DNA of 64,000 nt. It comes from an uncultured Clostridia bacterium. Lineage in GTDB: Bacteria; Bacillota; Clostridia; Christensenellales; CAG-314. Each line of letters opens with the position of its first letter. The stretch's first letter is position 1. The notes below the pieces were generated by a model, which did no database searches, was not told where the DNA came from, and saw only the letters and a list, made by a program, of their open reading frames with translations. Below, in pieces: positions 8,246 through 64,000 of the stretch. The position numbers were made by a program, and so were the translations under genes. The stretch lies in contig CALVWF010000005.1 in the NCBI GenBank assembly GCA_944364615.1, positions 76,311 through 140,310 on the forward strand, in the 5' to 3' direction.

Positions 8246-8248
8246 ATT

Positions 8249-44516: not shown

Positions 44517-47500
44517 TTACCAATATCTGATGTTTCCGTCTTCGTAATACCAGAAATTACCTTCCGATTCGGGTGGCGTCTCACTGTACCAATAACGGTT
44601 GGATACTTTCTGCAAATAATAATTCGACGGAAAAACATCCACATTGTTCCACTGTTCCTCACTGCATTGGAAGTAAACCTCAGACAACGAATTACAACCT
44701 TCGAACGCTCCGTAATAAATGTATTCCAAGTCGCCTCCCAACACCAAAGTTTGTAACGATGTACAACTTTCGAACGCGTAGTCTTCAATCACTCTTACTT
44801 CAAACGGAAGACGTACTTCCGTGAGCATCGAACAACCGCTGAAAGCGTATTCGCCCACTTCCGTAAGACCGGAACCGAATTTAACCTGTTCCAATGCTAC
44901 GCAATCTTCAAAGGCGTGATTGCCTACCGACAAAATTCCGTCGTAAAAGTCTATCGATTGAATGTTTTCGCATCCGTAAAATGCGTAATCCTCTATGATT
45001 GTAAGATTGTGAGGCAGGGAAACGTGCGAAACCAGCTTATTGCCTGTGAAGGTGACTCCTACGGAAACTATAGTGTGTCCGTCAAATTCGTCGGGCATGT
45101 AATACTTACCCTCGCCGCTTTCGGATTCCAACGCCGTCAGCAATGCCTTGTCGCCGTACAGAATGTAACTGTAGTAATTTGGGTTGACGACATTGCTACA
45201 ACTCATATACGTTGCTTCGGCTCCTTCCGACCAATCTGTAGCCCATCCTTCGGGAACAGTCGACGATTCACAGTAAATTTCGGCTTCGGTGCCGTATACC
45301 AACCGACTTCCCGCACGTTCGACAGATTGCGAAAGGAACACGCCAAACAATGACGGACACTCGGCAAAAGCATTTTGCGCCAGATAGGTGACCGATTGAG
45401 GTACCGTCACCAGACTGACATCGGCAGAACCGTAGAAAATGTCGCCCAGTCTTGTTACCGACAATCCGTCCACCTGCTGAGGTATTACGACGTCCCTGTC
45501 AGTACCCTTGTATTTGGTGAGCACCGCACCGTCTCCGCGCACTACGTAATCGTACAGTTGATTGGAAGTAACGTTGTTGTAACCCCACACTACGTTTGCT
45601 CCGTTTCCCCACGAATTGTCCCATCCTGACGGCTTTGCCGCCGCTTCGCAGTAAACCGTCTTGCAAGCATGGTCGAAAGCCCAGTAGCCTACATATTCCG
45701 TTTCGGCATTTATGACGATTGTGAGCGCAAAGCAACCGCTGAAAGCGTAATCGCCTATTTTAGTAACCGTCGCGGGCAATGTAATGTCCGCAAGAGACGT
45801 ACAGTTGGAAAATGCGCTGTTCCCTATTGCAGTGACATTGTCTGACATAGTTACCGACACGAGGTTGCTGCAATTTGACAACAACGCATCCGACACTTCG
45901 GTAATTCCGTCGGGCAATACTATTTCGGTCAGACCGCAATTGCCGAAAGCACCGCTGCCGATATATTCAATACCGTCTGGCAACGTGATTTCCGTCAAAC
46001 GACTTGCGTTAAAGGCATTGTCGCCAATACTTACGGTACTGTCGGGTAACTGAATTTGCAAAAGCGCAGTGTTCGTAAAGGAATTTGCACCGATGTCTGT
46101 AACGCTGTCAGGCATTGTCAGTAGTTGCAACTCGTAACAGTAAGCAAACATACCTTCCGCAATGCTCTTCAGACCGTGAGGCAATGTGACTTCCTGCAGT
46201 TGCGTGCAGTAGTTGAAGGCATATTGACCTACGCTCAGAACGGAGTCGGGAATTGCAACGGAGGTTAAGTTCGAATTGGAAAAGGCGTATTCGCCTATAT
46301 ATTCGCAGGTACTGTTTTCTTGGAAAGTCAGTGACTTCAAAATGACGTTTTCGAACAACCTGTCGGGAATTGCGTTTACCTTGTCGCCTATCGTAACGTC
46401 TACGTTGCCGTTGGCAAGCAACGACAAAATTACCGATTGCGAAACATTCTGCAAATCCGTATTGATGTACAGTTTTTCCAGTTGGTAAACGGAAATGTAG
46501 GTTTCCGAAGGACTGAATGTCACACCTTCCATCAGATACAGGTTTTTCAGCGAGTACATATCCAGCGTGCTTATCTCTCCGTTAAAGACGTACAGATCCG
46601 TAAGACTTAAAGATTGAAATGTTTCCAATGCGGTTGCGGGAATCTGCGCCTTTGTTACGTTCCAGCACTGCGAAAAAGCGCCTGCGCCCAAAGTCTGTAC
46701 CGATTGAGGCAGGTACAACTCTGTAATGTTGTAACAATAGGTAAAGGCATTGTCGCCCACAGACAGCAAATTGGACGGAAGCGTCAACGTGTAAAACTGC
46801 GAATTGGTAAACGCATTGCTTCCGATCGCGGTCACGCTGTCGGGTAATTGCAAACTTTCCGCCTGCAAAGAATTGAAGTTGTCGTTGCCGATATACGCAC
46901 AACTGCCGTTTGCTTCAAACTGCAATGTTCTGACCGAAATATTCGCAAAAAATCCGTCGGCAATACGTTCCACTCTTTCGCCTATGACAACGTCTATAGG
47001 AGAAACCGACTCTTTCATAAACACCGCGTAGCCCGTACAGTTGACTGCGTTTAATTCAACCCGTTCAAGCGTTTCGATGTATTGGAATGCGCAATTGCCT
47101 ATTTGCGTCACGCTTTCGGGAATGACTACGGAAGTCAGTCTTCCGTAGCGATAAAATGCGAAATCGCCTACCGACGTCACTCCGTCGGGAATGGTCAATT
47201 CGCCTTCCGCGAGAGTACCGTCTATATAAATGCTGTCCGCCATTGCGCTGTAAGGATATCCGTCGTTGCACGACATCGCAATACCGAACCACTGTTTTAA
47301 AGTACCTTGGTAATAAAGGTTGCCCGGTCGTTCGGTAGAGTATCCCGCAAGAGTAATCGTAGTTATACCGGAACCTATACGCAATGTTTTGTTCTCGCCT
47401 GTCCACCCCGTAAGGCTGTTGAAATCAAGGTGCGAAGTACCGTTGCCCACTACTATTTCCGCAAGTGAAGCCAAAGTACTTGCGTCCATGACGTCGGAAA

Positions 47501-50500
47501 TGTGTCCGTTTGTTTGCGCGTCCTTTCCGATATAGGGCAATCTGACGTATTCAAGCGAAGTCATACCGCTAAGGCCGTATATTGCCGTCACTCCGTCTCC
47601 TATTTCCAGACGGGTGATATAACCGGCGGAAGCAAGCGCTGAACCGCTGATTGCGGAATTGCCCGTAACGGTAAGTTCGGTAAGAGTCTTTGGCAGATAT
47701 TTTGAATTGTAACCGGTTGTCCAATCAGGCAGGCCTTCGGGAGCGAACAGACGTCCCAGAGCACTGACATTACCGAAAATATTTGACGACACCGTCATTT
47801 TGCCTACGGACGTACATCCGTAAAATGCCGATTCGCCTATTTCCGTTACACTGTCGGGAATGATTATTTCCTTTACGGCAACGGCATTTACAAAGGCAAA
47901 TGCACCGACGGCAGTAAAGCCCTGCGGTATATCGATCACTGTCAGAGGCTGTCCTTCGAAAACGTAGTTTCCGCTGTTTGCAAAGGGATTGGACGTTCTC
48001 GACGCAAACCGAATGTTCAGCCAGTCGCCCACCGTTCCGTCGTAAACCACATTTCCGCCAAATTGCTCGAACGCCGTTTCGGCAATGTATCTGACGGAAA
48101 CGGGCAATTCCAATTGCTCAATAGCGCAATACGCGAATGCGGAAAAACCTATACTTTCCACAGCAGACATATCGGCGTTTAATGTAGTAAGTTGCATACA
48201 ACCGCTGAAAGCGCCATCCGCAATTGCGGTAAGAGGTTGACTGTAAGTAACTGTTTCCACATTGCTGTTGGCAAAACCGCCTGCAACGGATGAGTTTGTC
48301 ACCACCACTTTTTTCAGGTTTTGCGGCAGCGTATCACCGAACAAATCGGTCAACATACCGCCCTCAGACGCACCCACAAAGGGAACGGTAAGTTCGGTGA
48401 CGTCGGTACATTGAGCAAATGCGCCTCTTTCTATCGCAACGACGGGTTTGCCGTCGACAGTTTCGGGAACGACGATTTTTAGAGGATTGTAGTCTGTTAA
48501 AGTATATCCCGTTACTTTAACGCCGTCGCCGAAATCCTCGGTTCGGAATGTCTTAACGGTGTTATAAGAGGCGTAAAGATTTAAGTTGTCTCTTATAATG
48601 ATGCTTTCCACAAACTGTCCGTTGATATCCTTCCAACCGACAAATTCGCTTGTACTGTTTTCGTCATCGCTTGCGGAAACGGCTTCGCCCGTAACCGCGT
48701 ACAGTGTTCCTTCCAGCACAGACTCCGTGCGGACGATGCTTCCGTCATCATTGAGATATATCACTTCAAAGTAGTTTTCCGCCTGCTTCCACACCAGCGT
48801 AGCATTTTGCACGAAACTTCTTGTTTCTTCGATATACGACTCCCATTCGGTGGAATAGATGTCTTTTAAGTTCAACGTGGAAGCAATTTCCACATACATT
48901 ACGTCAGGTCTGCCGTACACCGTCAACGAACCTATAGACAAATTCTCGTCTTCATAGTCATACAGGTATATTTCCGTGACGTTGGCAGGCAATGTGACGT
49001 TGTTGACGTGGGCGGTAATTCCCTCACCGCAACCGAGAGCAAATGTGATTTCGTTGTCGGAGGGAAGTATCTCTATTTTTTCCATTGTGTCGGCACACAG
49101 CAGATTGCCAAACGACGTGACCGTGGACGGTACCGTAAGAGAAGTAACTGCGGTGTAACGGAACGCGTTGTCTTCAATAGCAGTCAGGCCTTCGGGAAGT
49201 TGCAACGAAGCAAGCGACGTGCAACCGTAAAACGCAAACAATCCTATTTCCCTGATCTTGTCGGAAAATACCACCTGCTCAAGTGAAGTACAGCCGTAAA
49301 ATGCCGAACCTGCCACCGTCGAAACGCCGTTAAGGTAAGCGGATTGCAATGCGGTACAACCTTCAAATGTGCTTGTCGACAACGTTGCGGAATCGCACAG
49401 CAACTTTACCGTTTGCAACAAACTGCATTCCTGAAATGCGTTCAGTCCCAAACTTACGTTGCCTTCAGTAAACTCTATTTCCGTCAGAGCGGTGTTGCGG
49501 AAAGCGAAATCGCCAACATAAGAAATTCCTTCGGGGAAATTGATTACGGCAAGCCGTTCGCAACCGTTAAAAGCACCGTTGCCTATTCTCGTTACCGTTG
49601 AGGGCAGTTGCAGGCTTTCAATTGAAGTAAAGGCAAATTGATTGTCGGGTATTTCCGTAATGCCTGCGGGCAAAACCACTTCACGAAGGGGAAGCAGATT
49701 ACCTTCGGAACCGAGCCCGAGTTGAGGTAACGTTTCTCTGTTGCCGGTGTAAACTACTTTTTCTATGACGGAATAAGTGAAGTGATTGTACTTCACGCTG
49801 TCGGGAATAGTTACCGAAACCAGAGACGGACACTCACAAATTATATCTGTAATACCGTACGGCACAGTCAATTCGGCAATATTTTGTCCGTACAGTGTCA
49901 GTTTGCCCTCGAAATAGGGAATTTCCGGACAAACGGAACTTTCGGTGTCTATTGTAATCTCTTCCAACTCGGAGGGAATGTTGTAACTTACACCGTCGGG
50001 CAGTCTGTTGAACTCTACCGAACGCAGATTGTCCGGCAAAATTATTTCCTTCAACTTGTCACCGAACAATGCCCCGTCAATGTCAATTTTTTCAGTGTTG
50101 ACGGAAGCAACAAAAGTCAACTTTTCAATGTTGGGAAATTTGGGCAAAGGAGTGGAACTGTCGTTGTACGTAGCGGTATCTATCACCACTTCTTTAACGG
50201 AAGGCAACGAGTCGCCTTCGTTTTCGGCATACGCTTGTTTGTGGTAGCCGGTGTAAATCATTATGTACCGAGGCGTAACCTGACTGTAATCAACGGTTTC
50301 CAGTTGACCGTTTATCAACAAAAACAAGTTGTTGCCATCTTTGTCTCTGACTATCGCGCCGTCGACATAAAAATTGTCGTTGTCTTCGATTATAACGTTT
50401 TCAAATCCGTATATGTTTGCCCAGCCGAGATTTTCTGACGTTCCGCGTATTTCCTGCAATCCCGAAGGTATTACCAGAGTTTTGCCGGAAATGTTACATT

Positions 50501-51629
50501 CTTCCGAAATTATAGTCACGTCATCGGGTATTGTCACAATGTCGGATTTGCCGAGGTACTCTTTAAGTACACCGTTTTCCACATAAAATTCTTCCACAAC
50601 GGGCTGCAAATCGAAATTTTCGTAGAAGTTTTGTCTGTATTCGTCCACGTACTGCTTTACTTTTGAAAACTCTCCCGAGTCTTCCCAGACGCTGTATGCG
50701 TCGATATAGTTTTGCTTCATGTAATCTATATCTTGTGCAACGCCGTCGGCGGTTATATTAAGCAACTGTAACAGTTTGCGTGCGTTCTGCAAAACAACGC
50801 TTTTGCCGCTGTCGTAGTCGATTACAGGCAGTACAGAAGATTCGCCGTTTGCCTTGTCGGAGTAATATGGATCGAGAATTGCCTGGTAGGTTTCCATACT
50901 GTCAAGGAAACTTATTTCTATACGGCAATTTACAACCATATCGGACAAATCCGACATTACATCTCCCGTTTCGCCGCAATCCAGTCTGAAACTGAGATAC
51001 TGTCCGTCGGCATATCCGGTAAACGTAAAGGAATTAATGCCGTTGCTGTCATTTAAATAAACTTCCACTTGCGTAAATGCGACATCCTGCGCCGTTGTAC
51101 CGGAATAGGAACTGTATGTACATCGTACATAAGACGTCAGTGTGTCTTCGAGGTCGGTAGTCGTTGTAACCGAATAGCCGTCCTCTTCTTCCGTGATACT
51201 GTAACATGCGTCGTTACGTACGTTAAACGGGGTTGTGAGAAATTCGATTCCTGTGATACTGCCCAACTTTGCGTAACTTAACGGAGCAATCTGCATGTCA
51301 AGCACAGTGTTGGGAACAGTGTCTTTCCAGATACCTACCGTCTGAGAATATCTTGTAGGCGACATACCGAGTTTTTGCAATTGCGAAACGATGTCAGTCA
51401 TTGCTTCGCCGCTGACAACTGACATGTTTTGCTTGTCTGTCGACGGAGCAGACTCCTCCTGCTCGACAGGTACGCTGTTGGCAATATCCGCTACCGCCTT
51501 TTGAAAAGACATGTTCGCTTTTTCAAATTTTAAAAAGCCGTTGTCTGCAATTTCCGTCGGGGTGCACGCCGCCAACATCAAAGCGACAATCATTACCGCA
51601 GCCAGTAACGTAATCAAATACTTTTTCAT
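44517..51629 (-). CDS. giant BspA-type leucine-rich-repeat surface lipoprotein (about 2,370 aa)
   Basis: The start is at MKKYLITLLAAVMIVALMLAAC (lipobox LAAC, RBS GGAAAGGAG). Dozens of roughly 23-aa repeats follow the pattern IPDSVTxIGxxAFxxCxxL (LRR_5/BspA type). Blocks are separated by cap segments such as CEAAAKPSGWDNSWGNGANVVWGYN and CESSTVPEGWATDWSEG. Confidence 0.88.
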   Translation of the reverse strand: MKKYLITLLAAVMIVALMLAACTPTEIADNGFLKFEKANMSFQKAVADIANSVPVEQEESAPSTDKQNMSVVSGEAMTDIVSQLQKLGMSPTRYSQTVGIWKDTVPNTVLDMQIAPLSYAKLGSITGIEFLTTPFNVRNDACYSITEEEDGYSVTTTTDLEDTLTSYVRCTYSSYSGTTAQDVAFTQVEVYLNDSNGINSFTFTGYADGQYLSFRLDCGETGDVMSDLSDMVVNCRIEISFLDSMETYQAILDPYYSDKANGESSVLPVIDYDSGKSVVLQNARKLLQLLNITADGVAQDIDYMKQNYIDAYSVWEDSGEFSKVKQYVDEYRQNFYENFDLQPVVEEFYVENGVLKEYLGKSDIVTIPDDVTIISEECNISGKTLVIPSGLQEIRGTSENLGWANIYGFENVIIEDNDNFYVDGAIVRDKDGNNLFLLINGQLETVDYSQVTPRYIMIYTGYHKQAYAENEGDSLPSVKEVVIDTATYNDSSTPLPKFPNIEKLTFVASVNTEKIDIDGALFGDKLKEIILPDNLRSVEFNRLPDGVSYNIPSELEEITIDTESSVCPEIPYFEGKLTLYGQNIAELTVPYGITDIICECPSLVSVTIPDSVKYNHFTYSVIEKVVYTGNRETLPQLGLGSEGNLLPLREVVLPAGITEIPDNQFAFTSIESLQLPSTVTRIGNGAFNGCERLAVINFPEGISYVGDFAFRNTALTEIEFTEGNVSLGLNAFQECSLLQTVKLLCDSATLSTSTFEGCTALQSAYLNGVSTVAGSAFYGCTSLEQVVFSDKIREIGLFAFYGCTSLASLQLPEGLTAIEDNAFRYTAVTSLTVPSTVTSFGNLLCADTMEKIEILPSDNEITFALGCGEGITAHVNNVTLPANVTEIYLYDYEDENLSIGSLTVYGRPDVMYVEIASTLNLKDIYSTEWESYIEETRSFVQNATLVWKQAENYFEVIYLNDDGSIVRTESVLEGTLYAVTGEAVSASDDENSTSEFVGWKDINGQFVESIIIRDNLNLYASYNTVKTFRTEDFGDGVKVTGYTLTDYNPLKIVVPETVDGKPVVAIERGAFAQCTDVTELTVPFVGASEGGMLTDLFGDTLPQNLKKVVVTNSSVAGGFANSNVETVTYSQPLTAIADGAFSGCMQLTTLNADMSAVESIGFSAFAYCAIEQLELPVSVRYIAETAFEQFGGNVVYDGTVGDWLNIRFASRTSNPFANSGNYVFEGQPLTVIDIPQGFTAVGAFAFVNAVAVKEIIIPDSVTEIGESAFYGCTSVGKMTVSSNIFGNVSALGRLFAPEGLPDWTTGYNSKYLPKTLTELTVTGNSAISGSALASAGYITRLEIGDGVTAIYGLSGMTSLEYVRLPYIGKDAQTNGHISDVMDASTLASLAEIVVGNGTSHLDFNSLTGWTGENKTLRIGSGITTITLAGYSTERPGNLYYQGTLKQWFGIAMSCNDGYPYSAMADSIYIDGTLAEGELTIPDGVTSVGDFAFYRYGRLTSVVIPESVTQIGNCAFQYIETLERVELNAVNCTGYAVFMKESVSPIDVVIGERVERIADGFFANISVRTLQFEANGSCAYIGNDNFNSLQAESLQLPDSVTAIGSNAFTNSQFYTLTLPSNLLSVGDNAFTYCYNITELYLPQSVQTLGAGAFSQCWNVTKAQIPATALETFQSLSLTDLYVFNGEISTLDMYSLKNLYLMEGVTFSPSETYISVYQLEKLYINTDLQNVSQSVILSLLANGNVDVTIGDKVNAIPDRLFENVILKSLTFQENSTCEYIGEYAFSNSNLTSVAIPDSVLSVGQYAFNYCTQLQEVTLPHGLKSIAEGMFAYCYELQLLTMPDSVTDIGANSFTNTALLQIQLPDSTVSIGDNAFNASRLTEITLPDGIEYIGSGAFGNCGLTEIVLPDGITEVSDALLSNCSNLVSVTMSDNVTAIGNSAFSNCTSLADITLPATVTKIGDYAFSGCFALTIVINAETEYVGYWAFDHACKTVYCEAAAKPSGWDNSWGNGANVVWGYNNVTSNQLYDYVVRGDGAVLTKYKGTDRDVVIPQQVDGLSVTRLGDIFYGSADVSLVTVPQSVTYLAQNAFAECPSLFGVFLSQSVERAGSRLVYGTEAEIYCESSTVPEGWATDWSEGAEATYMSCSNVVNPNYYSYILYGDKALLTALESESGEGKYYMPDEFDGHTIVSVGVTFTGNKLVSHVSLPHNLTIIEDYAFYGCENIQSIDFYDGILSVGNHAFEDCVALEQVKFGSGLTEVGEYAFSGCSMLTEVRLPFEVRVIEDYAFESCTSLQTLVLGGDLEYIYYGAFEGCNSLSEVYFQCSEEQWNNVDVFPSNYYLQKVSNRYWYSETPPESEGNFWYYEDGNIRYW

Positions 51630-52541
51630 AACTTCTCCTTTCCGACTCCGTTGTCCGAAAATATATTGCACTACTTCGAAATCTTACTACCCGAAAACAA
51701 TGATGTAACTTACAGCATCTGTCCGAATAATTATATTACATTAATATATATTTTGATTATATCACAACAGTATACGTTGTCAATAACTTTACTGTCTGCT
51801 GTATTAAACAAAATACACTTAATATATTAAAATTTTCAAACGTGTACTTTTAAAGTTAAATGAAAATTGCGTCTGTCACTGAATCCCGTTTGCAAAATGC
51901 CCGATGTCCTTCGAATCACTATCATTCATTGCAATTATCGATTGCAAATGAGTTGTGTTATCGCAAAAAAAATCAGACCGATAAAACCGAACAACGGTCA
52001 TGACAACAAACAAACAGCGAAAATAAACTTTCGAACCTACGTTTTTAAAAGTTGTTTTGTCTGTTTTTCGAACAAGTTGTAATGACAAATATACCGTGTT
52101 ATGTTCCGAATAAAAGGAAGGTACTCACATTAAAGGAAATAAAGCCCTGCGGTCGGCACAAAAACAACTGCACAAACAGGGGGCGTGACTTTCGGTAAAT
52201 CCAGACAAAATATGCCCTGACATAAAAGACAGCAAATGGATTGGCAGAGACAGCGAGAAATCCGCAAGGATCAATTTCATTGCGACGGAATAATTTTTTC
52301 CTATCGTCACGTTATTTTGATTTCAAGACAGCGGAGCAGTGAAGAACAGGCGACGGGAGAACGGAAAAAGGAAGCACCATACTGTGCCCTTTCATTGTGA
52401 GACTGCCGTACAGGCTCTAAAAAAAAAACGATATACAATAAAAATACGGCAACCAAGTTTTACCATAGTTGCCGTGTGCTTACACTGGCGGAGCGAATAA
52501 ACGCCCGACTAAACCTTTTTACGGGTTCAGTCGGGTACCGC

Positions 52542-52740
52542 TTGGCGGAGACGGAGGGATTCGCAAGGAGCGAAGCGACGGAATAGCGAAAGCGACTTGT
52601 CGCTTGAGCGTCACGTTATTTCGATGTCTTGACGGCAAAGCAATGTGTGTGGCGAAGCAATACGGAGTAATAAAAAGAAAAAGACACCCATTGGTGTCTT
52701 TCTTTTTGTTGCGACTACAGGCGAGCCACACGCTGGCGGA
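52542..52740. repeat. 199-bp direct repeat, copy A (starts with a 21-nt tRNA 3'-end mimic)
   Basis: Identical to 55537-55734 except for one T/C substitution and one A-run length difference. The first 21 nt, tggcggagacggagggattcg, are the reverse complement of CGAATCCCTCCGTCTCCGCCA (T-loop, T-stem, acceptor, G73, CCA). The repeat contains an internal bidirectional hairpin (gacaccca-ttgg-tgtc) and ends with ctggcgga. Confidence 0.9.
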
Positions 52741-52782
52741 GCGTTAGTAACGTAAATCGAATATTCTGCCTTATAACCTCGA

Positions 52783-54363
52783 TTATGCGATACTTTGCAT
52801 AAACTCGTCCATTACAATATTGTAATTTGAGCCGAAAACGCCGTCAAAATTATAGTTAATACAACAGTTTAGGACGTTATTAAACCCATATTTTTCTATC
52901 AAATAATAGGTAAAGGCATAAGCCTCGGGATATGTTAAAACGTTTCCGCCTTTACTTGTACAAGAATATATTTTACATATCGCATTCGTTGCATACGGAA
53001 ATGTAATTCGCGATTTATAACTGCTATCTTTTAAGGTGATTTCTCCGATACATTTTTCAATGAGTGCAAAATCAAATTCGGACAAAGTATCGAATTGACC
53101 GCCGTTATTCTGGTAACGTGTATTGACCGTGTTTACAAAATCGGCAATGCCACCTGTTAATGTTTTATCTGTAAATGATAGATAAAACCGATTATTTATA
53201 TCAGAAATATGTTTAGAAACATACCGAGATAAATACTCCGCTACGCCTTCGCCTATCCACGCTTCGTCGGTGGGGTTACTTTTTAATGTAACGGCGTGGA
53301 TTGTTTCGTGTACATATTCGCTTGGGTCAAGCAAGTATATTTTACGATTATTAACATCACAGCACGTTTTAATTTCTCTGTCGGAAACAAAGTATTCGAG
53401 ATTGTCGGAATACCTTTGATTTACAAAATCGTAACTGTCGGGAGCGTTACTTTTTATATAATTCAATATTTTGGCACATTCTGCATTGCCTGCCGACAAA
53501 TGATATAAAACTCTTTCTGGTGTATCAAAACTTGCGGTTTCGCGTTTGGAAGAAAACGCATCGAGATTGTAAATCCGATTTGCCGTACTGATTACAAGCG
53601 GATAAGACAAAAATTTCTGACTGTATATCGCTTCGTCAAGCCACGACAAATCAAAAGATATATTAAACTTGCGGTTTATACCTAAAAATGAAAGGTATTC
53701 GGTTCTGTAATCCGTTAAGTTTGCATTTATAAAGTTTTTGTGTCCGTATGTGTTTATAACGAAATCACTGAAAGAATACGCCGTTTTTATTGCATTATCC
53801 GTATTATCATTAAAATCGTCGATAAAGTAAGCCGAAAATAGTGTTAATTCTAAATCTTTACCGTTTGCGTAATGTTCTTTAATTTCTTCATTGCTGTATT
53901 CACAATTAAAGGCGTGGGCATATGCTCCGTATTGTTTCCAATACTCGGTTGATTGAATATAAGCCCCTGCAAAAGCCTTTCTGTAACTGCCACTTTTTAC
54001 AGCACTTTCATTGCAAATTAAAACTTCGTTTTGATATACTGCTTTATCGTTTCCTAAAATATATTCATCGGCAATAATATAGCACTTAATTTGCGTGTCC
54101 AAATTGAATACACTTGTAAGTGTAGAATAATCGTCTTGCATTAAATTTATCAAATCGCTGATTTCGTCTTTTGAATTGCTTACACTGTTTTCAACGTGCA
54201 ATTCTATGTTTTTATCTTTTAATATATTGCAAGTGGTGCTTTTATAATAGGGAATATACTCATATACTTTTGTTTGATAATTTTTGTCTTTGTTACACGC
54301 CGAAAAAACTATCAAGCAAGATAAAAGAGATAAACATATAATCAAAATAAGCCTTTTTCTCAT
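52783..54363 (-). CDS. AT-rich lipoprotein with HExxH / EGxAEY gluzincin-like metalloprotease motif
   Basis: 526 aa with lipobox FSAC. YVHETIHAVTLKSNPTDEAWIGEGVAEYLS matches the peptidase-MA-like pattern (HExxH, about 20 aa, then E). The gene is visibly more AT-rich than the flanking chromosome. Confidence 0.6.
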   Translation of the reverse strand: MRKRLILIICLSLLSCLIVFSACNKDKNYQTKVYEYIPYYKSTTCNILKDKNIELHVENSVSNSKDEISDLINLMQDDYSTLTSVFNLDTQIKCYIIADEYILGNDKAVYQNEVLICNESAVKSGSYRKAFAGAYIQSTEYWKQYGAYAHAFNCEYSNEEIKEHYANGKDLELTLFSAYFIDDFNDNTDNAIKTAYSFSDFVINTYGHKNFINANLTDYRTEYLSFLGINRKFNISFDLSWLDEAIYSQKFLSYPLVISTANRIYNLDAFSSKRETASFDTPERVLYHLSAGNAECAKILNYIKSNAPDSYDFVNQRYSDNLEYFVSDREIKTCCDVNNRKIYLLDPSEYVHETIHAVTLKSNPTDEAWIGEGVAEYLSRYVSKHISDINNRFYLSFTDKTLTGGIADFVNTVNTRYQNNGGQFDTLSEFDFALIEKCIGEITLKDSSYKSRITFPYATNAICKIYSCTSKGGNVLTYPEAYAFTYYLIEKYGFNNVLNCCINYNFDGVFGSNYNIVMDEFMQSIA

Positions 54364-54462
54364 AAAACGCCCTCACAATAACGGCTATATTGTTTTTCTA
54401 TTATACACGATTTTGCTATTAAATTCAAGTAAAAAGCCATTGTAAACTTCAAATGGCACTTT

Positions 54463-54649
54463 GGCGGGTGCTTGACTATACGAGCGGCTCGGCTGCGCCT
54501 CGCCGTTCAAGCACCCGCCATATGAGCAGACGGAACAAAGCGAAACTCAAAAGCGCACGGGAACGGGCGGTCGTCGCTGAACCGCTTGGCGATCCGCCCT
54601 TATCTCCCGTGCGGCTGTATTTGAGTAGTGATGCCTTGCATGCCGTCTG
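54463..54649. other. GC-rich structured non-coding element (two adjacent long hairpins)
   Basis: Hairpin 1 has a perfect 13-bp stem, ggcgggtgcttga (54463-75) / tcaagcacccgcc (54507-19). Hairpin 2 spans 54527-54649 and has four stacked helices: cagacgg/ccgtctg, actcaaa/tttgagt, gcacggga/tcccgtgc and gggcgg/ccgccc, plus tcgc/gcga. No credible ORF is present. Confidence 0.6.
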
Positions 54650-54916
54650 TTCTTGCATATCGGCGTTTTGTAGACCTTCACATACGGCGCAGTATCCTTA
54701 CTGTAACGGTTTTGATACGGAAAAGTATACTTTCACCTACTCACGCTTAAAGCGAAAAACAGTGTATAATTTTAAGTGCCGAAACGGAGAAAAAGCCAAT
54801 GCACAAAAAAATTGTAAAATTTTCCGCTTAAACCCTTGCTTTTTGCCGTTTTCGAGCCTAAATAGTGAGGGGTATTTTTCTTCCTCTCAAAAATCAAGTG
54901 CGAGGAGGTGATAAAC

Positions 54917-55054
54917 GTGCTAAAAACAGAACTCGAAATCGTTACTGTCGGGACGCCCGACATAACGGCATTGTCAGACGATGAAAGACGTGTTTTCTTT
55001 GAAACGATAATGGCAAGAGTTTTGAAATTGGCAAAAGAACGGAATGAATTGTAA
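54917..55054 (+). CDS. small hypothetical protein (45 aa, GTG start)
   Basis: A strong RBS (GAGGAGGTG) lies 6 nt upstream of the GTG. The translation is VLKTELEIVTVGTPDITALSDDERRVFFETIMARVLKLAKERNEL. It is missing from the ORF track because it is under 60 aa. Confidence 0.4.
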   Translation: MLKTELEIVTVGTPDITALSDDERRVFFETIMARVLKLAKERNEL

Positions 55055-55536
55055 TGTAATGAAACGGAACTAATATAACGGAAATGGAATTGACAGAAAG
55101 GAATGTTCGGGGCGCAACGTACTACGCCGCCCCATTAGATAGATAACCGAATAGTGACCGAAACGGATTGAACCGAAAGTAATCAGCGGTAAATAAAACA
55201 ACAGAGCCGATACGCAGGCGTTTAAGATTTCCGAAAAGTGACGGGAACGCGCCGTAAAGCAAAGGGCAAAGTATGAAACGATAACAGGATTGTTTTGTAT
55301 TTTGTCCTTTTTCTTTTTCACTAAAAAATACACAAAAAGGAGTATAATTTTGTTGTAGAATAAACATAAAATAGACGGCATAAGCCGTCTATTTTGTATA
55401 GTTGCCGTGTTCATCTCTTTTCTGCGTCAAGTAGAAGTCAGACCATTGGGGGAACATAAACTTCGGTATCGATTATGATACCGGCAACCCCCTTAATACA
55501 AAAATAATAGAGCCGCGGGTTCAAACGCGACTCTGT

Positions 55537-55734
55537 TTGGCGGAGACGGAGGGATTCGCAAGGAGCGAAGCGACGGAATAGCGAAAGCGACTTGTCGCTT
55601 GAGCGTCACGTTATTTCGATGTCCTGACGGCAAAGCAATGTGTGTGGCGAAGCAATACGGAGTAATAAAAAGAAAAGACACCCATTGGTGTCTTTCTTTT
55701 TGTTGCGACTACAGGCGAGCCACACGCTGGCGGA
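55537..55734. repeat. 199-bp direct repeat, copy B
   Basis: See copy A. Same orientation, 198 nt, and it begins with the same 21-nt tRNA 3'-end mimic. Confidence 0.9.
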
Positions 55735-55838
55735 CTCGATGAGACCCCAACTGAACACCTTTTATTTAGCTATGAAAACATATCGTATAAGATTGTCCAC
55801 GAAGAGGATGCTTAATTTGCATCCTATTTTTTAATGCC

Positions 55839-56012
55839 TTTCGTGGCGTCGTTGTACCACAGCAGTAAGCGGCAAGTCAACGGAAAAATTTATCGCTTAA
55901 AACTCAAAGAGAAGGAACAGTCATACTCGACTTAGAGTATGACTATTTTATTTTTACGATTTTTATCTAACAGGACAATCCAATGCAATACATTTTTCTT
56001 TTCGTTGACTTC
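55839..56012 (+). repeat. roughly 170-bp module, copy 1 (conserved motif + terminator hairpin + TTGACT box)
   Basis: tttcgtggcg...aagtcaa...tatcgcttaaaactcaaa, then a perfect 10-bp hairpin agtcatactc/gagtatgact plus a T-run, then ttttcgttgacttc. It is collinear with 57269-57436. Confidence 0.7.
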
Positions 56013-56066: not shown

Positions 56067-57110
56067 TTACAAATAATCAGGTAAGCCTAACGGATTACGT
56101 AAAGTTTCTATTTCTTCATTTGTTCTTGCAACAAAATATTCCTCATAATCCCACTGTGCTCTGTCATAATCCTCTTTGAAAACAAATTTACAGTGGTTTT
56201 TAAAAAACTCGGATACACCCTTAAGAATATTAATTATCAACTCGTTGTTAAAACTAATATACCAATACGCCATATCACCAGCTTCATATGCTGCACCACC
56301 TTTTAATTTTGCCAGCACTTCGGGATAATTTTCTTTTAGTTTTTTATATGTAGATAAACTATTATGTTTGATAAAATGCCATATTAAGTACATTTTATCG
56401 TATTCTTTAAATCCTTCAAGTCCCTTGATTTGTTTCGCTGTCTTGTTTTTAAAGTTATATAAATTATCACGCTTGAATTGTTTGCCACAAAAACCGTTTT
56501 TATATAAAATTTTAACTGTCATAGCTTCTATTTTAGACGTCATCTGATGAAAAAACTGAGCATATAAACTCATATATAGTTTAACCCTTTTGTCTTGTGC
56601 CTTCGCTTTGGCACGAATATTCCGCATCAAAGTATTAGTACAAGCTTCTTCATGGTCAACAATACCGCTCGTAAAAAGATCATCATCGCCAGGCGTGTAT
56701 TCTTTCGCTTTTATAGCTTTGATTTCTTTTTCAATCAAAGGCATATAATCCTTTTCCCATTCATTTAATATGTCTTCTATTAATGGAATTATTAAATTAC
56801 AGTTATAATCTTCCCTTTGCTTTTTAGAAGGGAAATAGTAATGCGTACGACGCGCTTTCATTATATCAAGCTGTTTTTCTGACAACCCTATTTTTTTGCC
56901 ATATCTTTCTATATCTATTTTTACTCTTCTTTTATCTCCGGCTTTAGAAATAAAAACCCCATAGTATCTTGTGTCATCATAACGGTGTTCTTCTTCAAGT
57001 TGTGAATACAACTTAAGATTAGCATCTTTACACTTCACTTTATCCTTTTCCTCCATGATAGTAATTAAGGCATCCCAAAGGATGCCTTTGCCAAATTGAT
57101 TATTCAGCAT
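56067..57110 (-). CDS. AT-rich hypothetical protein (347 aa), orphan cargo gene
   Basis: A long ORF, the only minus-strand gene in this segment. It is Lys/Glu/Tyr-rich, has no signal peptide and no motif I can assign. It is flanked by the duplicated roughly 170-bp module. Confidence 0.7.
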   Translation of the reverse strand: MLNNQFGKGILWDALITIMEEKDKVKCKDANLKLYSQLEEEHRYDDTRYYGVFISKAGDKRRVKIDIERYGKKIGLSEKQLDIMKARRTHYYFPSKKQREDYNCNLIIPLIEDILNEWEKDYMPLIEKEIKAIKAKEYTPGDDDLFTSGIVDHEEACTNTLMRNIRAKAKAQDKRVKLYMSLYAQFFHQMTSKIEAMTVKILYKNGFCGKQFKRDNLYNFKNKTAKQIKGLEGFKEYDKMYLIWHFIKHNSLSTYKKLKENYPEVLAKLKGGAAYEAGDMAYWYISFNNELIINILKGVSEFFKNHCKFVFKEDYDRAQWDYEEYFVARTNEEIETLRNPLGLPDYL

Positions 57111-57268
57111 TACATATAAGTGCTAACCATCACTCCGACAATGTTGCCCATAGATGGAAATTTGGCATCAACCATATCCAAATTCTCTTATATATTTAAG
57201 TATAACATATACTAAACGAAAAATCAATCAAACATATTGCCATTTAGATTACTCTCCAAATTTTGCCG

Positions 57269-57436
57269 TTTCGTGGCGGCTATCGTAGCACAGATTTCGC
57301 AGAAGTCAATGCGAAACAATATCGCTTAAAAATCAAATATCTCTTAACTCCGAAGCCGGGAAGTAATTTCTTCTCGGCTTTTTCTTTGAAAATCTAATGA
57401 CTTAAAAGCAATATTTTTTCGTTTGTCATTGACTTC
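57269..57436 (+). repeat. roughly 170-bp module, copy 2 (upstream of the small-gene operon)
   Basis: tttcgtggcg...aagtcaa...tatcgcttaaaaatcaaa, then the hairpin gaagccgggaag/cttctcggctt plus a T-run, then ttttcgtttgtcattgacttc (TTGACT at 57429-34, a possible -35 box). Confidence 0.7.
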
Positions 57437-59766: not shown

Positions 59767-60039
59767 ATGAAATCAATCATTGAAGAACTTTACTACGGAA
59801 ATATCGATGCAAAAGAAGACATTGTACTTCCTGAAAAGAAACGCAAAAAAGAACTTGCGCTTTACGACAAACTGAAAGCCACTCTATCCAAAGAAAGCGA
59901 TGAACTTTTTGAAAAATTTATCGAAATTACAGAAGATCATTACGATGAATTGATGCGCATGATTTTCAAACGTGGAGTTTCAACAGGAATTATGCTTGCT
60001 GCCGAAGCGTTTGTCGAAGGAGAAAAACTATGCGATTGA
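59767..60039 (+). CDS. hypothetical protein (90 aa; DUF6809-like by recollection)
   Basis: RBS AAGGAG. The N-terminal pattern IIEELYYGNIDAKE recurs in Clostridia mobile elements. The family name is tentative. Confidence 0.5.
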   Translation: MKSIIEELYYGNIDAKEDIVLPEKKRKKELALYDKLKATLSKESDELFEKFIEITEDHYDELMRMIFKRGVSTGIMLAAEAFVEGEKLCD

Positions 60040-61049
60040 ATCTTGAAGCCAAAACAAAAGAACAGGAACTCATAAAAGCGTACCTCGAAGAAAACGCAAG
60101 CGAAATAATTTCAGATAAAATCAACAACGGTACGCCTTTTGAAAAGGACCGAAAAACTTTTATCAACAAAAAGACGCTGGACGGATTTATGAAATACGCA
60201 TCAGACGAGGCAAGAAAACTTGCCTCGAAAGGTGCAAATTCAGCGTGTGTAGAAGATAAAGTCGTTTATGGCTGGGCTGTCCACTATTTCGAAGAAGACA
60301 GTATCGAAGATACGCTCTTAAACGATGACGGTACCGAATATAAACCCGCTCCGAAATCGACGCCTGCAAAAGTCAAAAAAGTCGAACCAAAAAAACCAGA
60401 ACAGCGTCAACCGACGCTCTTTGATTTTATGGAACCGCAGAAATCGGAACCCGAAGTCAAAGACGAAAACAATGATGACGAGGACGAACAGCCTTCGCAA
60501 GAAGAAATCGACGAAATCCTTGCCGAAATCGCCGAAGAAGAAAACAAAAAAGCAACTCAGAAAAAGCTGTCCCCTTTCTATGAAAAATATCTGGAAATAG
60601 AACACTCTTATCCTGATTACGTGGTTGCTTATCGGCTCGGTGACTTCTACGAAGTGTTCGGCGAAAAAGCCGTACAAATTTCCGAAGAATGTAATCTTAC
60701 TTTAACAGGCCGTGACGTCGGACTTGAAACCCGAATCCCGATGGTCGGATTCCCCTACCACGCCGCTGAACTGTATTTTGACAAAATTCAGCGCAATCAC
60801 CGCTTGGTCATTATCAATTCTGACGGCACATTGAAAGAACTTTCCAACCCGCAATCCGCTATCAATCTTGATACCGGCGAAATCTACGATGAAATGACCG
60901 AAGAAGAAATGCGGGAATTTGACGGAGATATCGAAGAACCGCAAGACATTGACGACGAACCCGAAGATTTGTTTGACGCAACAGCTTTTGATAAAACTGC
61001 CCTTTGCAAATTAGATGCAATCTTCGGAGATAAACTTACTTTGAGGTGA
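60030..61049 (+). CDS. mobile-element protein containing a stand-alone MutS domain I (mismatch-binding domain)-like module
   Basis: Residues 180-266, LSPFYEKYLEIEHSYPDYVVAYRLGDFYEVFGEKAVQISEECNLTLTGRDVGLETRIPMVGFPYHAAELYFDKI, align position-for-position with the E. coli MutS N-terminus ([30 protein letters not shown]...ISLTKRG...IPMAGIPYHAVENYLAKL), including the GDFYE Phe-x-Glu motif. No MutS ATPase, clamp or core domains are present. The N-terminal roughly 95 aa and an acidic linker are unassigned. Confidence 0.7.
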   Translation: MRLNLEAKTKEQELIKAYLEENASEIISDKINNGTPFEKDRKTFINKKTLDGFMKYASDEARKLASKGANSACVEDKVVYGWAVHYFEEDSIEDTLLNDDGTEYKPAPKSTPAKVKKVEPKKPEQRQPTLFDFMEPQKSEPEVKDENNDDEDEQPSQEEIDEILAEIAEEENKKATQKKLSPFYEKYLEIEHSYPDYVVAYRLGDFYEVFGEKAVQISEECNLTLTGRDVGLETRIPMVGFPYHAAELYFDKIQRNHRLVIINSDGTLKELSNPQSAINLDTGEIYDEMTEEEMREFDGDIEEPQDIDDEPEDLFDATAFDKTALCKLDAIFGDKLTLR

Positions 61050-61052
61050 AAT

Positions 61053-62372
61053 ATGAGAGAAACAGACATCAAACCTATCCCGAAATACATACTAAACCAA
61101 ATCCGAAAGGCGGATAATAAAAACTATCCTAACCCAGACGGACACGTTCGCTGTTATGCCTATCTTACCACTTGGAAAAACGAGCTTGTGAAAGTGACCG
61201 TTGCCGTGAAAAACCGCTACAAAAAATGGTACTGCAAGCAAGTTGCCGTTCACGGACTGAACTCGAAAAAATGCTTTGTGAAAGATATGGAATACTGCTA
61301 TTGCGCAAGTATGGGTTTTCGTTTCGGCTGGTACGAAGAAGGCTTGCAAAAATGCGAAAACTGGTACGAACGCGGTTGGTGCTGGGCTGACGATAAATAT
61401 TACGATCCGTATGCCGAACTCATCAACCCAAACTTTATAGACCGCTTACCGGAGTTCAAATACAGCGCATATAAACTGTTTCAGGGTTGCGATATTTTCA
61501 AATATTTACGGCTTTACAGACAGTATCCCCAGATTGAAATGCTGATGAAACTCGGCTTTACAAGCATTGCCATGAGCGCAACCATATTAAAGCGTTGCGG
61601 AACGGACAAAGCTTTCTGCAAATGGCTCATTTCCAACAAAGCATTGCTTCAAAGCAGACACTACTATATCGACGTCATTGTGCGAGCATATAAGACGAAA
61701 AAATCGCTTGAACAGTTGCAGTCATATAAGGAAGCAAAGCTCCGACTAATCCACGACAGCAGTCTTGCTCCAATCAAAGAACTGTTCAAAGGAAAAGACC
61801 TTGAACGGTTCTTTGACTATATGTTAAAACAACAGACCAACCAGAACACTTATCTTGACTATCTGAAAGCCTGCCAAAATCTCGGACTCGATATGACAGA
61901 AGACAAGAACCGTTTCCCCCACGATTTCAAACGCTGGCACGATATCCGCATCGACCAGTACGCCACAAAAAAAGCAATCGAAGATGAAGAAAAACACAAG
62001 GAACTGTATATTCAATTTGCCGCCGTTGCGGAAAAATATCTATCCTTGCAACACGCAAAACGAAGCGCGTTTGTATGCATTATCGCAAAAAGCCCGGCAG
62101 ATCTAATTCGAGAAGGCGAAGCCTTGCATCACTGCGTAGGCAGAATGAATTATGAGCAACGTATGGTACGGGAAGAATCGCTCATCTTCTTTATCCGAAA
62201 CAAACAGGAACCCAACACTCCGTTCGTTACAGTCGAATACTCAATATCGCAAAAGAAAGTCCTGCAATGTTACGGAGAACACGATCACAAACCGAACGAA
62301 GACGTACTGCATTATGTCAACAAAGTATGGCTCCCTTACGCTAACAGAACACTTAAACAAATTGCAGCATAG
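61053..62372 (+). CDS. PcfJ-like protein
   Basis: 439 aa. The C-terminal motif LIREGEALHHCVGRMNYEQRMVREESLIFFIR...PFVTVEY is the conserved core of PcfJ-like proteins of Gram-positive conjugative plasmids/ICEs. Confidence 0.7.
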   Translation: MRETDIKPIPKYILNQIRKADNKNYPNPDGHVRCYAYLTTWKNELVKVTVAVKNRYKKWYCKQVAVHGLNSKKCFVKDMEYCYCASMGFRFGWYEEGLQKCENWYERGWCWADDKYYDPYAELINPNFIDRLPEFKYSAYKLFQGCDIFKYLRLYRQYPQIEMLMKLGFTSIAMSATILKRCGTDKAFCKWLISNKALLQSRHYYIDVIVRAYKTKKSLEQLQSYKEAKLRLIHDSSLAPIKELFKGKDLERFFDYMLKQQTNQNTYLDYLKACQNLGLDMTEDKNRFPHDFKRWHDIRIDQYATKKAIEDEEKHKELYIQFAAVAEKYLSLQHAKRSAFVCIIAKSPADLIREGEALHHCVGRMNYEQRMVREESLIFFIRNKQEPNTPFVTVEYSISQKKVLQCYGEHDHKPNEDVLHYVNKVWLPYANRTLKQIAA

Positions 62373-63095: not shown

Positions 63096-63602
63096 TTGAT
63101 TGCAACTTTTATAGGTCATCGCAAAATTCAAAACTGTGAAATATTAACTACAAGGCTAAAAGAAACTATCATCCGTCTAATTGACGATAAACAGGTTGAT
63201 ACTTTTTTGTTCGGCAGCCGAAGTGCTTTCGATGATTTATGCCTTGAAACAATCACTGAAATACAACAGATCCGTCCACACATAAAACGAATATACATCA
63301 GAGCCTCTTATCCATATATCAACAGCAACTATGAAACATACCTGCTCAAATTCTATGATGCTACCTATTTCCCAGACAAAATCGAGAAAGCAGGAAAAGC
63401 CTCTTATGTAGAACGCAACGAATATATGATTGACAAGGCGGACTTCTGTATTTTTTATTATAACGAAAACTATCAACTTCCACTTAAACCGGCAACCAGA
63501 AAACGTATCTTCTCTTTTCAACCGAAAAGCGGAACCAAAATCGCATACGATTATGCCGTGCAAAAGAAAAAGACAATTATAAACCTATTCAGTGAACCAT
63601 AA
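63096..63602 (+). CDS. SLOG/DUF1273 (YpsA-like) family protein
   Basis: TTG start with AAGGAG 6 nt upstream. FIGHRK...TFLFGSRSAFDDLC...ERNEYMIDKADFCIFYY resembles the Rossmann-like SLOG fold motifs of DUF1273. It is divergent from the XRE gene. Confidence 0.5.
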   Translation: MIATFIGHRKIQNCEILTTRLKETIIRLIDDKQVDTFLFGSRSAFDDLCLETITEIQQIRPHIKRIYIRASYPYINSNYETYLLKFYDATYFPDKIEKAGKASYVERNEYMIDKADFCIFYYNENYQLPLKPATRKRIFSFQPKSGTKIAYDYAVQKKKTIINLFSEP

Positions 63603-63732
63603 CATACCCTTCGAATACGGTAGTGGGATATTTGCGTGTGCTTGTTTTTACACATTTTTATGGATACATTTAGAGGGAAAGATCGGGGCATTAAAAAAGG
63701 TGCATGGAGTTGTTTTCCATACACCTTTTTTG

Positions 63733-64000
63733 TTATTTTTTGAGCTTATAACGCAGGACGGAGGCAATATCTACTTTGTAGATAATATCGATCACTCTGT
63801 CTTCGCCTTCGGTTTTAGGCGCACTGCCCACGACGATTCGGTCAATCAGTTCGTAGCACATTTCTCGAGTAAGTTCCGGCGCGTCAAAGTATTTCTTGAT
63901 GCTTCGTATAAAATCGTCGGCACTCTGCATCATATTTGACGTTTCGGTCAGCTTTGCTTCCAGCTCGGCTATTTCCGTTTCAAGTTTCTTCTGTTCTTCC
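63733..64000 (-). CDS. large serine recombinase, C-terminal end only (frame open to right window edge)
   Basis: The translation ...EEQKKLETEIAELEAKLTETSNMMQSADDFIRSIKKYFDAPELTREMCYELIDRIVVGSAPKTEGEDRVIDIIYKV is a coiled-coil followed by the DUF4368-type tail found at the C-terminus of Clostridial large serine recombinases (TndX/TnpX-like). Confidence 0.7.
   Translation of the reverse strand, partial: EEQKKLETEIAELEAKLTETSNMMQSADDFIRSIKKYFDAPELTREMCYELIDRIVVGSAPKTEGEDRVIDIIYKVDIASVLRYKLKK

Follow-up and report, generated by a model that had tools for sequence, protein, structure and literature searches.

We analysed a 64-kb stretch of the genome of an uncultured Clostridia bacterium (the window, meaning the whole of this stretch), in which two near-identical direct repeats bracket a 2.8-kb insert. 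All repeat units are read here on the minus strand, which is the sense of the transfer RNA (tRNA) represented in them. In this direction the region runs from a composite of mobile DNA on the right (ending ...catcgag) through unit B (repeat copy B), a segment named Z169, the cargo and right end of an inserted element, and unit A (repeat copy A); past unit A it continues with a spacer, D49 (ending ...ttattCG), a degenerate third unit, U0 (headed by CTCCGCCA), a flank, and a 2384-amino acid (aa) LRR_5 gene (coordinates in Table 1). The repeats at 52542-52740 and 55537-55734 align as a 140-nt block at 99% identity and a 68-nt block shifted by one base, which corresponds to one substitution and one A-run length difference, as had been described in an earlier reading of the letters made without database searches (the sequence-only reading). 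The analysis supports the view that these repeats are tRNA-derived attachment-site (att) junctions.

Each repeat is a composite. Unit A begins with CTCCGCCA (52741-52734), continues with 63 nt that contain a terminator (hairpin 52703-52678) and with a segment of ~107 nt (X107), and closes with the 21-nt 3' end of a tRNA-Ser(CGA) (52563-52543). The CTCCGCCA head corresponds to the last 8 nt of tRNA-Ser, and the closing 21 nt begin in the T loop. The head of unit B reads gag/TCCGCCA, so that its identity with the tRNA locus stops 7 nt before the tRNA 3' end; its right edge is GTCCGCCAG, as had been claimed. Each 21-nt fragment is trailed at once by an intrinsic terminator, located in D49 for unit A and in Z169 for unit B. 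Z169 is 91% identical to positions 5704-5878 of the related contig L048, where it follows a CCGCCA junction and touches the terminus of a PcfJ-type element. As for U0, the sequence-only reading had seen a diverged copy of an internal motif at about 52300; such a copy exists, but it belongs to a whole degenerate unit that can be aligned from end to end. U0 comprises a degenerate tRNA 3' fragment (TGGCAGAGACAGCGAGAAATCCG on the plus strand), CAAGG, GCGACGGAATA, CGTCACGTTATTTTGAT, a terminator-like hairpin, and the terminus CTGGCGGAG, together with an extra insertion of ~55 nt holding a second hairpin.

The 21-mer CGAATCCCTCCGTCTCCGCCA that closes the units occurs in the window only at 52543-52563 and 55538-55558, both on the minus strand, and shuffled sequences yielded no match to it even at <=3 mismatches. 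The shorter CTCCGCCA is present four times in the window, always on the minus strand and always in this region (52486, 52543, 52734, and 55538; shuffles averaged 1.1 copies, and 3 of 100 of them reached four). Two of these, at 52486 and 52734, are the short tRNA-end copies previously noted at about 52486 and at the right edge of copy A. The match to tRNA is limited to the last 21 nt: neither ARAGORN nor Rfam RF00005 called a cloverleaf at 52.2-55.8 kb, in agreement with the earlier statement that the sequence beyond the T loop has no tRNA fold, and the sole tRNA of the window is a tRNA-Met at 3237-3314. Using Rfam 15, nothing in 52-58 kb reached the gathering threshold; the best sub-threshold hit (E = 0.24) is terminator-like, and nothing credible appeared at E <= 5. 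The scan for terminator-like sites found 15, compared with 4.4 +/- 1.8 in shuffles, and the scan for promoter-like sites found none inside a unit. The insert was correctly described as AT-rich, with a G+C fraction (GC) of 0.36-0.39; leftward, the window lies mostly at 0.45-0.50, dropping to 0.41-0.43 in the final 2 kb before the insert. No match was obtained by megablast of 52400-55800 against a phage collection, or by an exact search of viral contigs with the junction 21-mer. The possibility that the unit is merely a dispersed repeat was not borne out, since in the window and in related and metagenomic contigs it was not found away from att-like sites.

The home of the unit was revealed by related contigs (designated here by L numbers), which were reached by looking up window proteins in public assemblies; L106 was obtained by an exact scan of metagenome contigs for the T-loop junction. 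In L010 (GCA_963602855.1, contig CAVCKL010000001.1), an intact tRNA-Ser(CGA) at 8546-8636 ends in ...GGTTCGAATCCCTCCGTCTCCGCCA and is directly adjoined by the unit, followed by the 2.8-kb insert, CTCCGCCA with the 63-nt terminator segment, and an IS30-like gene. The window is 100% identical to this contig over 3065 bp (52670-55734), and the rest of L010 has no match to the window. L106, which comes from another sample, contains the same locus (99% identical upstream) with an intact tRNA-Ser(CGA) at 11954-12044; behind this tRNA stand two tandem units, repeated every 191 bp, whose identities to the window unit are 98.5% and 93%, and the insert is absent. Both of these tRNAs end exactly in the 21-mer of the window repeats, which confirms that the repeats carry an exact tRNA 3' end, and both abut the unit; a tRNA-Ser with the predicted 21-mer end does exist in related genomes. 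Only 170 nt of non-coding DNA separates the tRNA from the next 21-nt repeat in either contig, and the last 8 nt of every 21-nt fragment double as the head of the next unit. Because L010 has one unit and L106 has two in tandem, the unit represents a cassette that can be stacked behind tRNA-Ser(CGA). Two of the three window copies of this 191-bp non-coding cassette, which is native to the tRNA-Ser(CGA) 3' flank, constitute the 199-bp repeats. These repeats are not the simple duplicated target proposed earlier: the cassette is composite, has two junction types (in the T loop and at the terminal CTCCGCCA), and stands in tandem without any island in L106.

In a contig from another metagenome-assembled genome (L041, 12640-12700), we also observed a terminator hairpin just 3' of tRNA-Ser(CGA) whose loop contains CGCTCCGCCG, the core of the recombination junctions described here.

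The 2.8-kb insert carries a 526-aa cargo gene, whose exact product was found in at least five genomic contexts. No integrase was detected inside 52742-55536: neither of the two open reading frames (ORFs) scanned (526 aa and 45/48 aa) matches Pfam, and besides a doubtful ORF of 152 aa, no further long one is listed in this interval. A non-coding hairpin region, together with ~100 nt, is kept at 70-75% in L030, L031, L032, L068, L070, L071, and L074, several of which are serine-recombinase loci. The most informative relative is L013, which matches the window at 99.4% over 2661 bp (52670 to 55330) and diverges beyond. There, the order is tRNA-Ser(GCT), a terminator and ~270 nt, a large serine recombinase of 497 aa (Pfam Resolvase + Recombinase + Zn_ribbon_recom), a Rep protein of 294 aa (PF23343, ORF2/G2P type), the 45-aa ORF, the hairpin region, the 526-aa gene, and the end ...cgatttacgttactaaCG/CTCCGCCA. 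A tblastn search of this Rep against a plasmid collection gave no match. The window copy has neither the recombinase nor the Rep gene, and remnants of the recombinase are present in other relatives (65 aa of its C-terminus in L099 and L103, 84 aa in L008). Sequence comparison thus identifies the insert as the cargo half of a predicted serine-recombinase element of ~5.5 kb that is seen intact in L013. The 2.8-kb segment is indeed a decayed integrative element, as the sequence-only reading held, with L013 carrying the lost recombinase and Rep; the tyrosine integrase that it had assumed was not seen, and the intact relative L013 encodes a large serine recombinase.

Further comparison of the element's ends indicates how it was placed. 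In the window and its relatives, four different sequences were observed downstream of the right end, each joined to it at CGCTCCGCCA: the tRNA-Ser(CGA) terminator segment (common to the window, L010, and L013), a tRNA-Ser(TGA)-type downstream region (L008; compare L001), another segment at L099 7815, and the D49 hairpin at L099 5933. In L099, this hairpin (5886-5964) follows a CTCCGCCA core bearing ~24 nt of the insert end. The occurrence of one right end at four unrelated downstream sequences argues that the original placement was site-specific and marks this, as judged from the aligned sequences, as the element's site-specific end. Since the right end behaves in this way, CTCCGCCA at the right edge of copy A would be an attR-type junction of the decayed element. 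On the opposite side, the left arm (gtaagaacc... and a terminator) adjoins the CCA of tRNA-Ser(GCT) in L008 and L013 and is joined in L099 to two other tRNA-Ser-type 3' fragments, giving a total of three tRNA-Ser-type 3' ends. When both element ends are joined as read from these sequences, they form cgATTTAcgTTACTaaCGCTCCGCCAGTAAgaaccTAAATcg, an imperfect inverted repeat around a CGCTCCGCC core, which is a putative attP of the form expected for a serine integrase.

Hairpins with CGCTCCGCC in the loop were also noticed in L001 (12575-12640), L046, L061, L074, L041 (12650), and the window (54450-54520), and may be att sites or origins. Halves of such hairpins lie at junctions in the window (63634-63654), L106 (~12480-12510), and L099 (7345-7385). 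In addition, a symmetric site, ccgTTTAttTTCG-CTCCGC-CGAAagGTAAA, is located between Rep and serine-recombinase genes in L018 (4757), L019 (2140), L044 (3678), L076 (9632), and L083-L085; its core resembles a tRNA-Ser 3' end, which makes it a candidate attP or tandem-junction site.

Table 1. Features of the repeat array, the insert, and the adjoining right-hand element (window coordinates).
Feature	Position	Strand	Remarks
U0, old degenerate third cassette copy	52236..52493	-	alignable over its full length to units A, B, and L106 unit 2
CTCCGCCA core heading U0	52486..52493	-	junction ...gggcgtttattCG/CTCCGCCA/gtgtaagcacacgg
D49, 48-nt spacer separating unit A from U0	52494..52541	-	intrinsic terminator 52535-52504 just 3' of the unit A tRNA fragment
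Unit A (repeat copy A)	52542..52741	-	identical cassettes follow intact tRNA-Ser(CGA) in L010 and L106
Structured motif adjoining the T-loop junction	52564..52616	+	second copy at 55559-55611
Right end of serine-recombinase element, ...attcgatttacgttactaaCG then CTCCGCCA	52742..52765	-	attR-type behaviour
526-aa ORF, element cargo	52783..54363	-	lipoprotein-like signal peptide (MRKRLILIICLSLLSCLIVFSAC...); no Pfam match
Conserved non-coding hairpin region (GGCGGGTGCTTGA...TCAAGCACCCGCC)	54444..54626		within the listed 152-aa ORF (54453-54911)
45-aa ORF, cargo region	54917..55054	+	from ORF list and relatives
Breakpoint relative to intact or less decayed relatives	55330..55342		next in L013: Rep and serine recombinase; next in L099 and L103: recombinase C-terminal remnant
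Z169 segment	55368..55536	-	two terminators (55534-55509 and 55395-55368); directly 3' of the unit B tRNA fragment
Unit B (repeat copy B)	55537..55735	-	anatomy as unit A
Motif B, followed by hairpin	55822..55910	+	~70% similar to motif A (repeat comparison)
347-aa ORF between motifs B and A	56067-57110	-	no Pfam match
Motif A, sharp left terminus of right-hand core element	57253..57340	+	L001, L003, and L048 are homologous from 57252/57253 onwards
LSR1, C-terminal part of large serine recombinase	63733..64000	-	Resolvase + Recombinase + Zn_ribbon_recom + DUF4368; gene leaves the window at its right end

We propose that the repeats are neighbouring units of a tRNA-anchored array that originated as tandem cassettes and was split by insertion of an element at a CTCCGCCA core, and assign this explanation a probability of about 0.6. 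The following course of events, and the assignment of an enzyme to each junction, are inferred. A cassette that starts in the last 8 nt of the tRNA and closes with a fresh copy of its last 21 nt re-creates the core and a terminator with every copy, and could thereby be stacked head to tail behind the tRNA. The starting point would have been an array of tandem cassettes like that of L106, and its repeated cores would later have served as insertion sites for small elements whose large serine recombinase, accompanied by a rolling-circle Rep, recombines at the CTCCGCCA core. One such element would have entered the core between two cassettes; after the later loss of its recombinase and Rep genes, the 2.8-kb insert carrying the 526-aa gene would have remained. 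Another insertion, separating unit A from U0, would have decayed to 48 nt, and the head of unit B would abut a further mobile composite ending in the large serine recombinase at 63733. The repeats would therefore pre-exist the insertion and have been pushed apart by it, rather than have arisen from it as a target duplication. The att-site and tandem-island idea of the sequence-only reading is thus broadly right and its details are not, because serine recombinases were found and no tyrosine integrase was seen.

Several points weigh against this reconstruction. The window has no intact tRNA-Ser, and the far end of the right-hand element lies beyond the contigs of the lineage, all of which, as fetched, stop inside the recombinase gene near 64-65 kb (the longest, L017, is without its N-terminus); hence, the anchor of the array is unseen in this genome. 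Neither an empty-site allele nor a circular junction was found among the lineage contigs with the flanking genes (CBAH and 347-aa proteins), which are all collinear, and L106, which has no insert, represents a different genomic locus from the window. The insert is without its own recombinase and its left arm, Z169, is unlike that of the intact element, which implies that the history holds at least one unexplained deletion or replacement. The reconstruction also gives no account of how the 191-bp cassettes themselves, with their T-loop junction, are made. Moreover, three unrelated cassette families are similar in size (191, 196, and ~207 bp) and have a common covarying motif, a poor fit with random decay scars. 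Finally, the unit B head is gagTCCGCCA instead of CGCTCCGCCA, and that junction may differ in origin.

The common motif adjoins the T-loop junction. On the plus strand, it consists of CAAGGA, a mini-hairpin (GCGAAGC), GAC GGAATA, a helix (GCGAAAGCGAC/GTCGCTTGAGC), and GTCA, and it recurs in L106 unit 2, L084, L087, and L001. In L084 (BRZ_V bin16), two 196-bp repeats (4759-4954 and 8178-8373; 96% identical and 3419 bp apart) each begin with the 3' fragment of a different tRNA than tRNA-Ser(CGA), cut in the T loop; they bracket an 855-aa fused restriction-modification gene, with recN on one side and Rep and serine-recombinase genes on the other. In L087, the motif lies beside a T-loop fragment ~185 nt from an intact transfer-messenger RNA (tmRNA) gene, with a terminator in between, and in L001, where two pseudo-tRNA-Ser copies stand in tandem, it interrupts the anticodon loop of each as a discrete insertion of 71 nt. 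The motif families are mutually 36-53% identical overall, and compensatory changes preserve the closing pairs of the helix that lies between GGAAUA and GUCA: GCCGT/ACGGC in L084, GCGAG/CTCGC in L087, GC with tandem G.A and AAG/CTT in the window, and GT with tandem G.A and GC in L001. Across families, the length of the first hairpin ranges between 7 and 28 nt. Such variable hairpins argue for recognition of the motif in a folded single strand. The motif has no Rfam match, and a literature search with its string returned only unrelated primer matches.

The two tandem units of L001 (4250-4652) are ~206 bp long, 98% identical, and located upstream of an intact tRNA-Ser(TGA). Each copies the tRNA leader and the 5' portion of the gene as far as the T stem; the D-arm region is interrupted by 39 nt of inserted sequence, and the anticodon loop by the 71-nt motif. 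The repeat architecture of the window has one counterpart in L084, which supports the proposed array, and another in L099, which contains a ~290-nt direct repeat in two copies ~3.3 kb apart, each ending in a tRNA-Ser fragment, as read from the sequences. A tRNA-like minihelix fold of the units was considered and rejected, as it fits L084 and L087 and fails for the window unit. IS91, Helitron, IS605, integron attC, and intron readings of the T-loop junction were considered as well; the YG^AA context and the subterminal hairpin are suggestive, and no matching enzyme lies adjacent.

These features invite a rival explanation, in which the cassette is itself the functional or mobile unit (a miniature element, an RNA, or a single-stranded DNA site) and targets tRNA-like hairpin loops, bringing a replacement tRNA 3' end and a terminator. 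It would account for a motif kept in four families despite their low overall identity, with compensatory closing pairs and length-variable hairpins, for the similar unit sizes, and for the discrete insertion in L001; in every case the motif stands beside a hairpin-loop break, namely in the T loops of tRNA-Ser(CGA), the L084 tRNA, and the L087 tmRNA, and in the anticodon loop of the pseudo-tRNA-Ser. We nevertheless consider this explanation unlikely, because the unit has no promoter-like site and no Rfam match, independent examples number only four or five and share no consistently adjacent protein, the motif is absent from the Rep-bearing L013 and L018, and an element-end motif next to a direct repeat is also found in ordinary serine-recombinase islands (PMC3146451). 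By analogy with those islands, which occur in Dehalococcoides, the motif may be an element-end recognition site. A more specific and equally tentative suggestion is that a structured element of ~53-71 nt not described before (NAAGGA-hairpin-GAC GGAAUA-helix-GUCA), round which the cassette is built, marks and perhaps directs insertion into tRNA-like hairpin loops. Such an element could be a miniature non-autonomous mobile element or a single-stranded site that an HUH Rep or relaxase recognizes or nicks, or it could scaffold an RNA that begins with 21 nt antisense to the tRNA 3' end and stops at the bidirectional terminator of the cassette.

The arrangement might also have arisen by homologous recombination only, through Campbell-type entry of a cassette plus 2.8 kb or a 3-kb duplication, without any site-specific enzyme. 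In its favour, the 199 bp of the two copies agree at 99%, which is sufficient for RecA-dependent recombination. The block is also found with 100% identity in L010, whose second unit is truncated beside the IS30-like gene and leaves a flanking repeat of just 71-73 bp. Furthermore, the insert has no recombinase and its site is attR-type rather than attP-type; serine integrases alone do not recombine an attR-type site with attB. However, such an origin would not explain why the insert ends precisely at CGCTCCGCCA with four unrelated downstream sequences, leaves the 48-nt scar between unit A and U0 at the same core unexplained, and is at odds with L008 and L099, which already have the insert at CTCCGCCA cores without flanking cassette homology. 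We therefore regard it as improbable.

Equally doubtful is the proposal that a tyrosine-integrase island or satellite duplicated the tRNA 3' part, with the repeats as attL and attR and the integrase and intact tRNA past 64 kb: the 21-nt identity block does begin in the T loop, a classical crossover sublocation of tyrosine integrases, and the orientation of the unit B head does put a minus-strand tRNA to the right, but no such integrase was found among the proteins scanned at 52.8-63.6 kb or in the intact insert relatives, the recombinases linked to these elements are of the serine type, the direct tandem in L106 with nothing between its copies means that the repeats are not the attL/attR pair of the 2.8-kb insert, the insert end joins at CTCCGCCA and not in the T loop, and tRNA-Ser is rarely near the loci of the right-hand recombinase family.

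Tandem arrays of integrative elements at tRNA and tmRNA genes, with cis-mobilizable remnants (CIMEs) between att sites, are well established (PMC3146451, PMC7192596). As in such accretion arrays, the repeated tRNA 3' ends mark boundaries here, elements free of recombination genes adjoin complete ones, and the composition varies between strains. Unlike in those arrays, the repeated piece is a 191-bp composite cassette with two junction types that can be stacked with nothing between, and the window has no anchoring tRNA. The Dehalococcoides ssrA islands encode a CcrB-like serine recombinase and combine T-loop insertion, a 20-bp direct repeat, an adjacent motif, and tandem arrays (McMurdie et al. 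2011, PMC3146451). Serine-recombinase elements, a ~20-bp repeat of an RNA-gene 3' end, a short conserved motif just upstream of the repeat, and tandem arrays that include islands without integration genes are shared by both systems; here, the T-loop break reads ...CTCCTTG/CGAATCC, the repeat is 21 nt long, and the motif recurs in L106, L084, and L087. On the other hand, the target here is tRNA-Ser(CGA), with tmRNA only in L087, the motif differs in sequence and has variable hairpins, and no DsiB/DsiA-type module accompanies the T-loop junctions (none lies next to the tRNA in L010 or L106). The site-specific recombinase here also appears to use the terminal CTCCGCCA instead of the T loop.

Another parallel is the phage phiRSM1, which has a pII-type Rep and a serine recombinase, and whose att core TGGCGGAGAGGGT is the 3' end of tRNA-Ser(UCG) (PMC3816273). 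The elements described here resemble the Int/attP unit of phiRSM1 and phiRSM3 (Ralstonia filamentous phages) in combining a serine recombinase with a pII/G2P-type rolling-circle Rep, and the phiRSM att core, which is the tRNA-Ser(UCG) (anticodon CGA) 3' end in reverse orientation, begins with TGGCGGAG like the core here. The phiRSM recombinase is of the small resolvase/invertase type, whereas that of L013 is a large serine recombinase; moreover, the hosts are Betaproteobacteria in one case and Clostridia in the other, no virion genes are evident here, and the window copy no longer has either a recombinase or a Rep. Guedon et al. (2017) reportedly described integrative and mobilizable elements (IMEs) of Firmicutes that carry Rep-like relaxases. 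By gene content, the present elements are like these IMEs, being small, composed of an integrase, a rolling-circle-type initiator, and cargo, and often in tandem with conjugative elements.

To our knowledge, almost all described tRNA-anchored island arrays involve tyrosine integrases and a bare att core. Distinctive here are the large-type recombinase, the uncultured gut Clostridia hosts, and, chiefly, the self-stacking 191-bp cassette with its covarying motif. The serine-recombinase and Rep elements of these bacteria appear to use the terminal CTCCGCCA common to the tRNA-Ser genes of these loci, and were seen joined to tRNA-Ser(GCT) and to CGA- and TGA-type flanks or fragments. Cassettes that multiply this core and add a terminator each time could be landing pads that let elements accumulate without damage to the tRNA. 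Such arrays also break metagenome assemblies, as contigs of several samples stop at the repeats or inside the recombinase gene. A testable lead to the origin of the cassette is offered by the motif that adjoins the tRNA fragments.

The presence of a larger mobile element in tandem to the right of the insert, as proposed by the sequence-only reading, is also supported. Its core begins sharply at motif A, to the right of which the plus strand encodes DUF7222, PcfK+MutS_I (60030-61049), PcfJ (61053-62372), and YpsA-like (63096-63602) proteins by Pfam. Between motifs B and A lies a 347-aa ORF whose exact product is present on 17 contigs, and the nine short ones compared are collinear with the window. 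The integrase had been placed beyond 64 kb; the recombinase gene, LSR1, in fact starts inside the window on the minus strand and is of the serine type. Its family comprises 80 related loci in Clostridia and Christensenellales metagenome-assembled genomes. When 60 such loci were scanned for tRNAs, a tRNA-Ser gene was found in two, neither upstream of the recombinase gene, so that an intact tRNA just past 64 kb is not favoured. Nor does the minus-strand orientation suggested for that tRNA suit this element: where motif A is near a tRNA (L001, L048, and L082), both occupy the same strand, the reverse of the arrangement that the proposal requires.

Two candidates were rejected in this part of the window. 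From neighbouring loci, the gene at 63733 had been considered as a Rep, which its translation and Pfam match to a large serine recombinase ruled out. The core at 52486-52506 had been considered as the far att site of the right-hand recombinase, making 52.5-65.5 kb a single element; in its favour, a site like ccgTTTAttTTCG-CTCCGC-CGAAagGTAAA lies between Rep and that recombinase elsewhere, but the homology boundary is sharp at 57253 and the 52486 core is the head of U0.

Some additional observations concern the surroundings of the array. The 339-aa protein at 60030-61049 joins a PcfK-like region to MutS domain I, the mismatch-binding domain, an unusual fusion in a mobile element. At least 14 loci of the serine-recombinase family contain the ~85-nt terminus block of motifs A and B (..TTTGCCGTTTCGTGGCGG..GTAGCACAG.TTTCGC.GAAGTCAATGCGAAA..), which may be an att arm, a promoter, or a leader; the block is also present without any element in L008 (11717-11789), just 3' of a tRNA-Ser-type terminator. 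In L005 (2617-3842), an insertion sequence with an rve-type transposase is located within the PcfJ-YpsA interval of an otherwise near-identical right-hand element. On the left side, the array is flanked by the 2384-aa ORF (44517-51671, minus strand), which is called as a 2370-aa LRR_5 protein in related contigs, and further left lie genes for choloylglycine hydrolase and amylase or CBM26 surface proteins.

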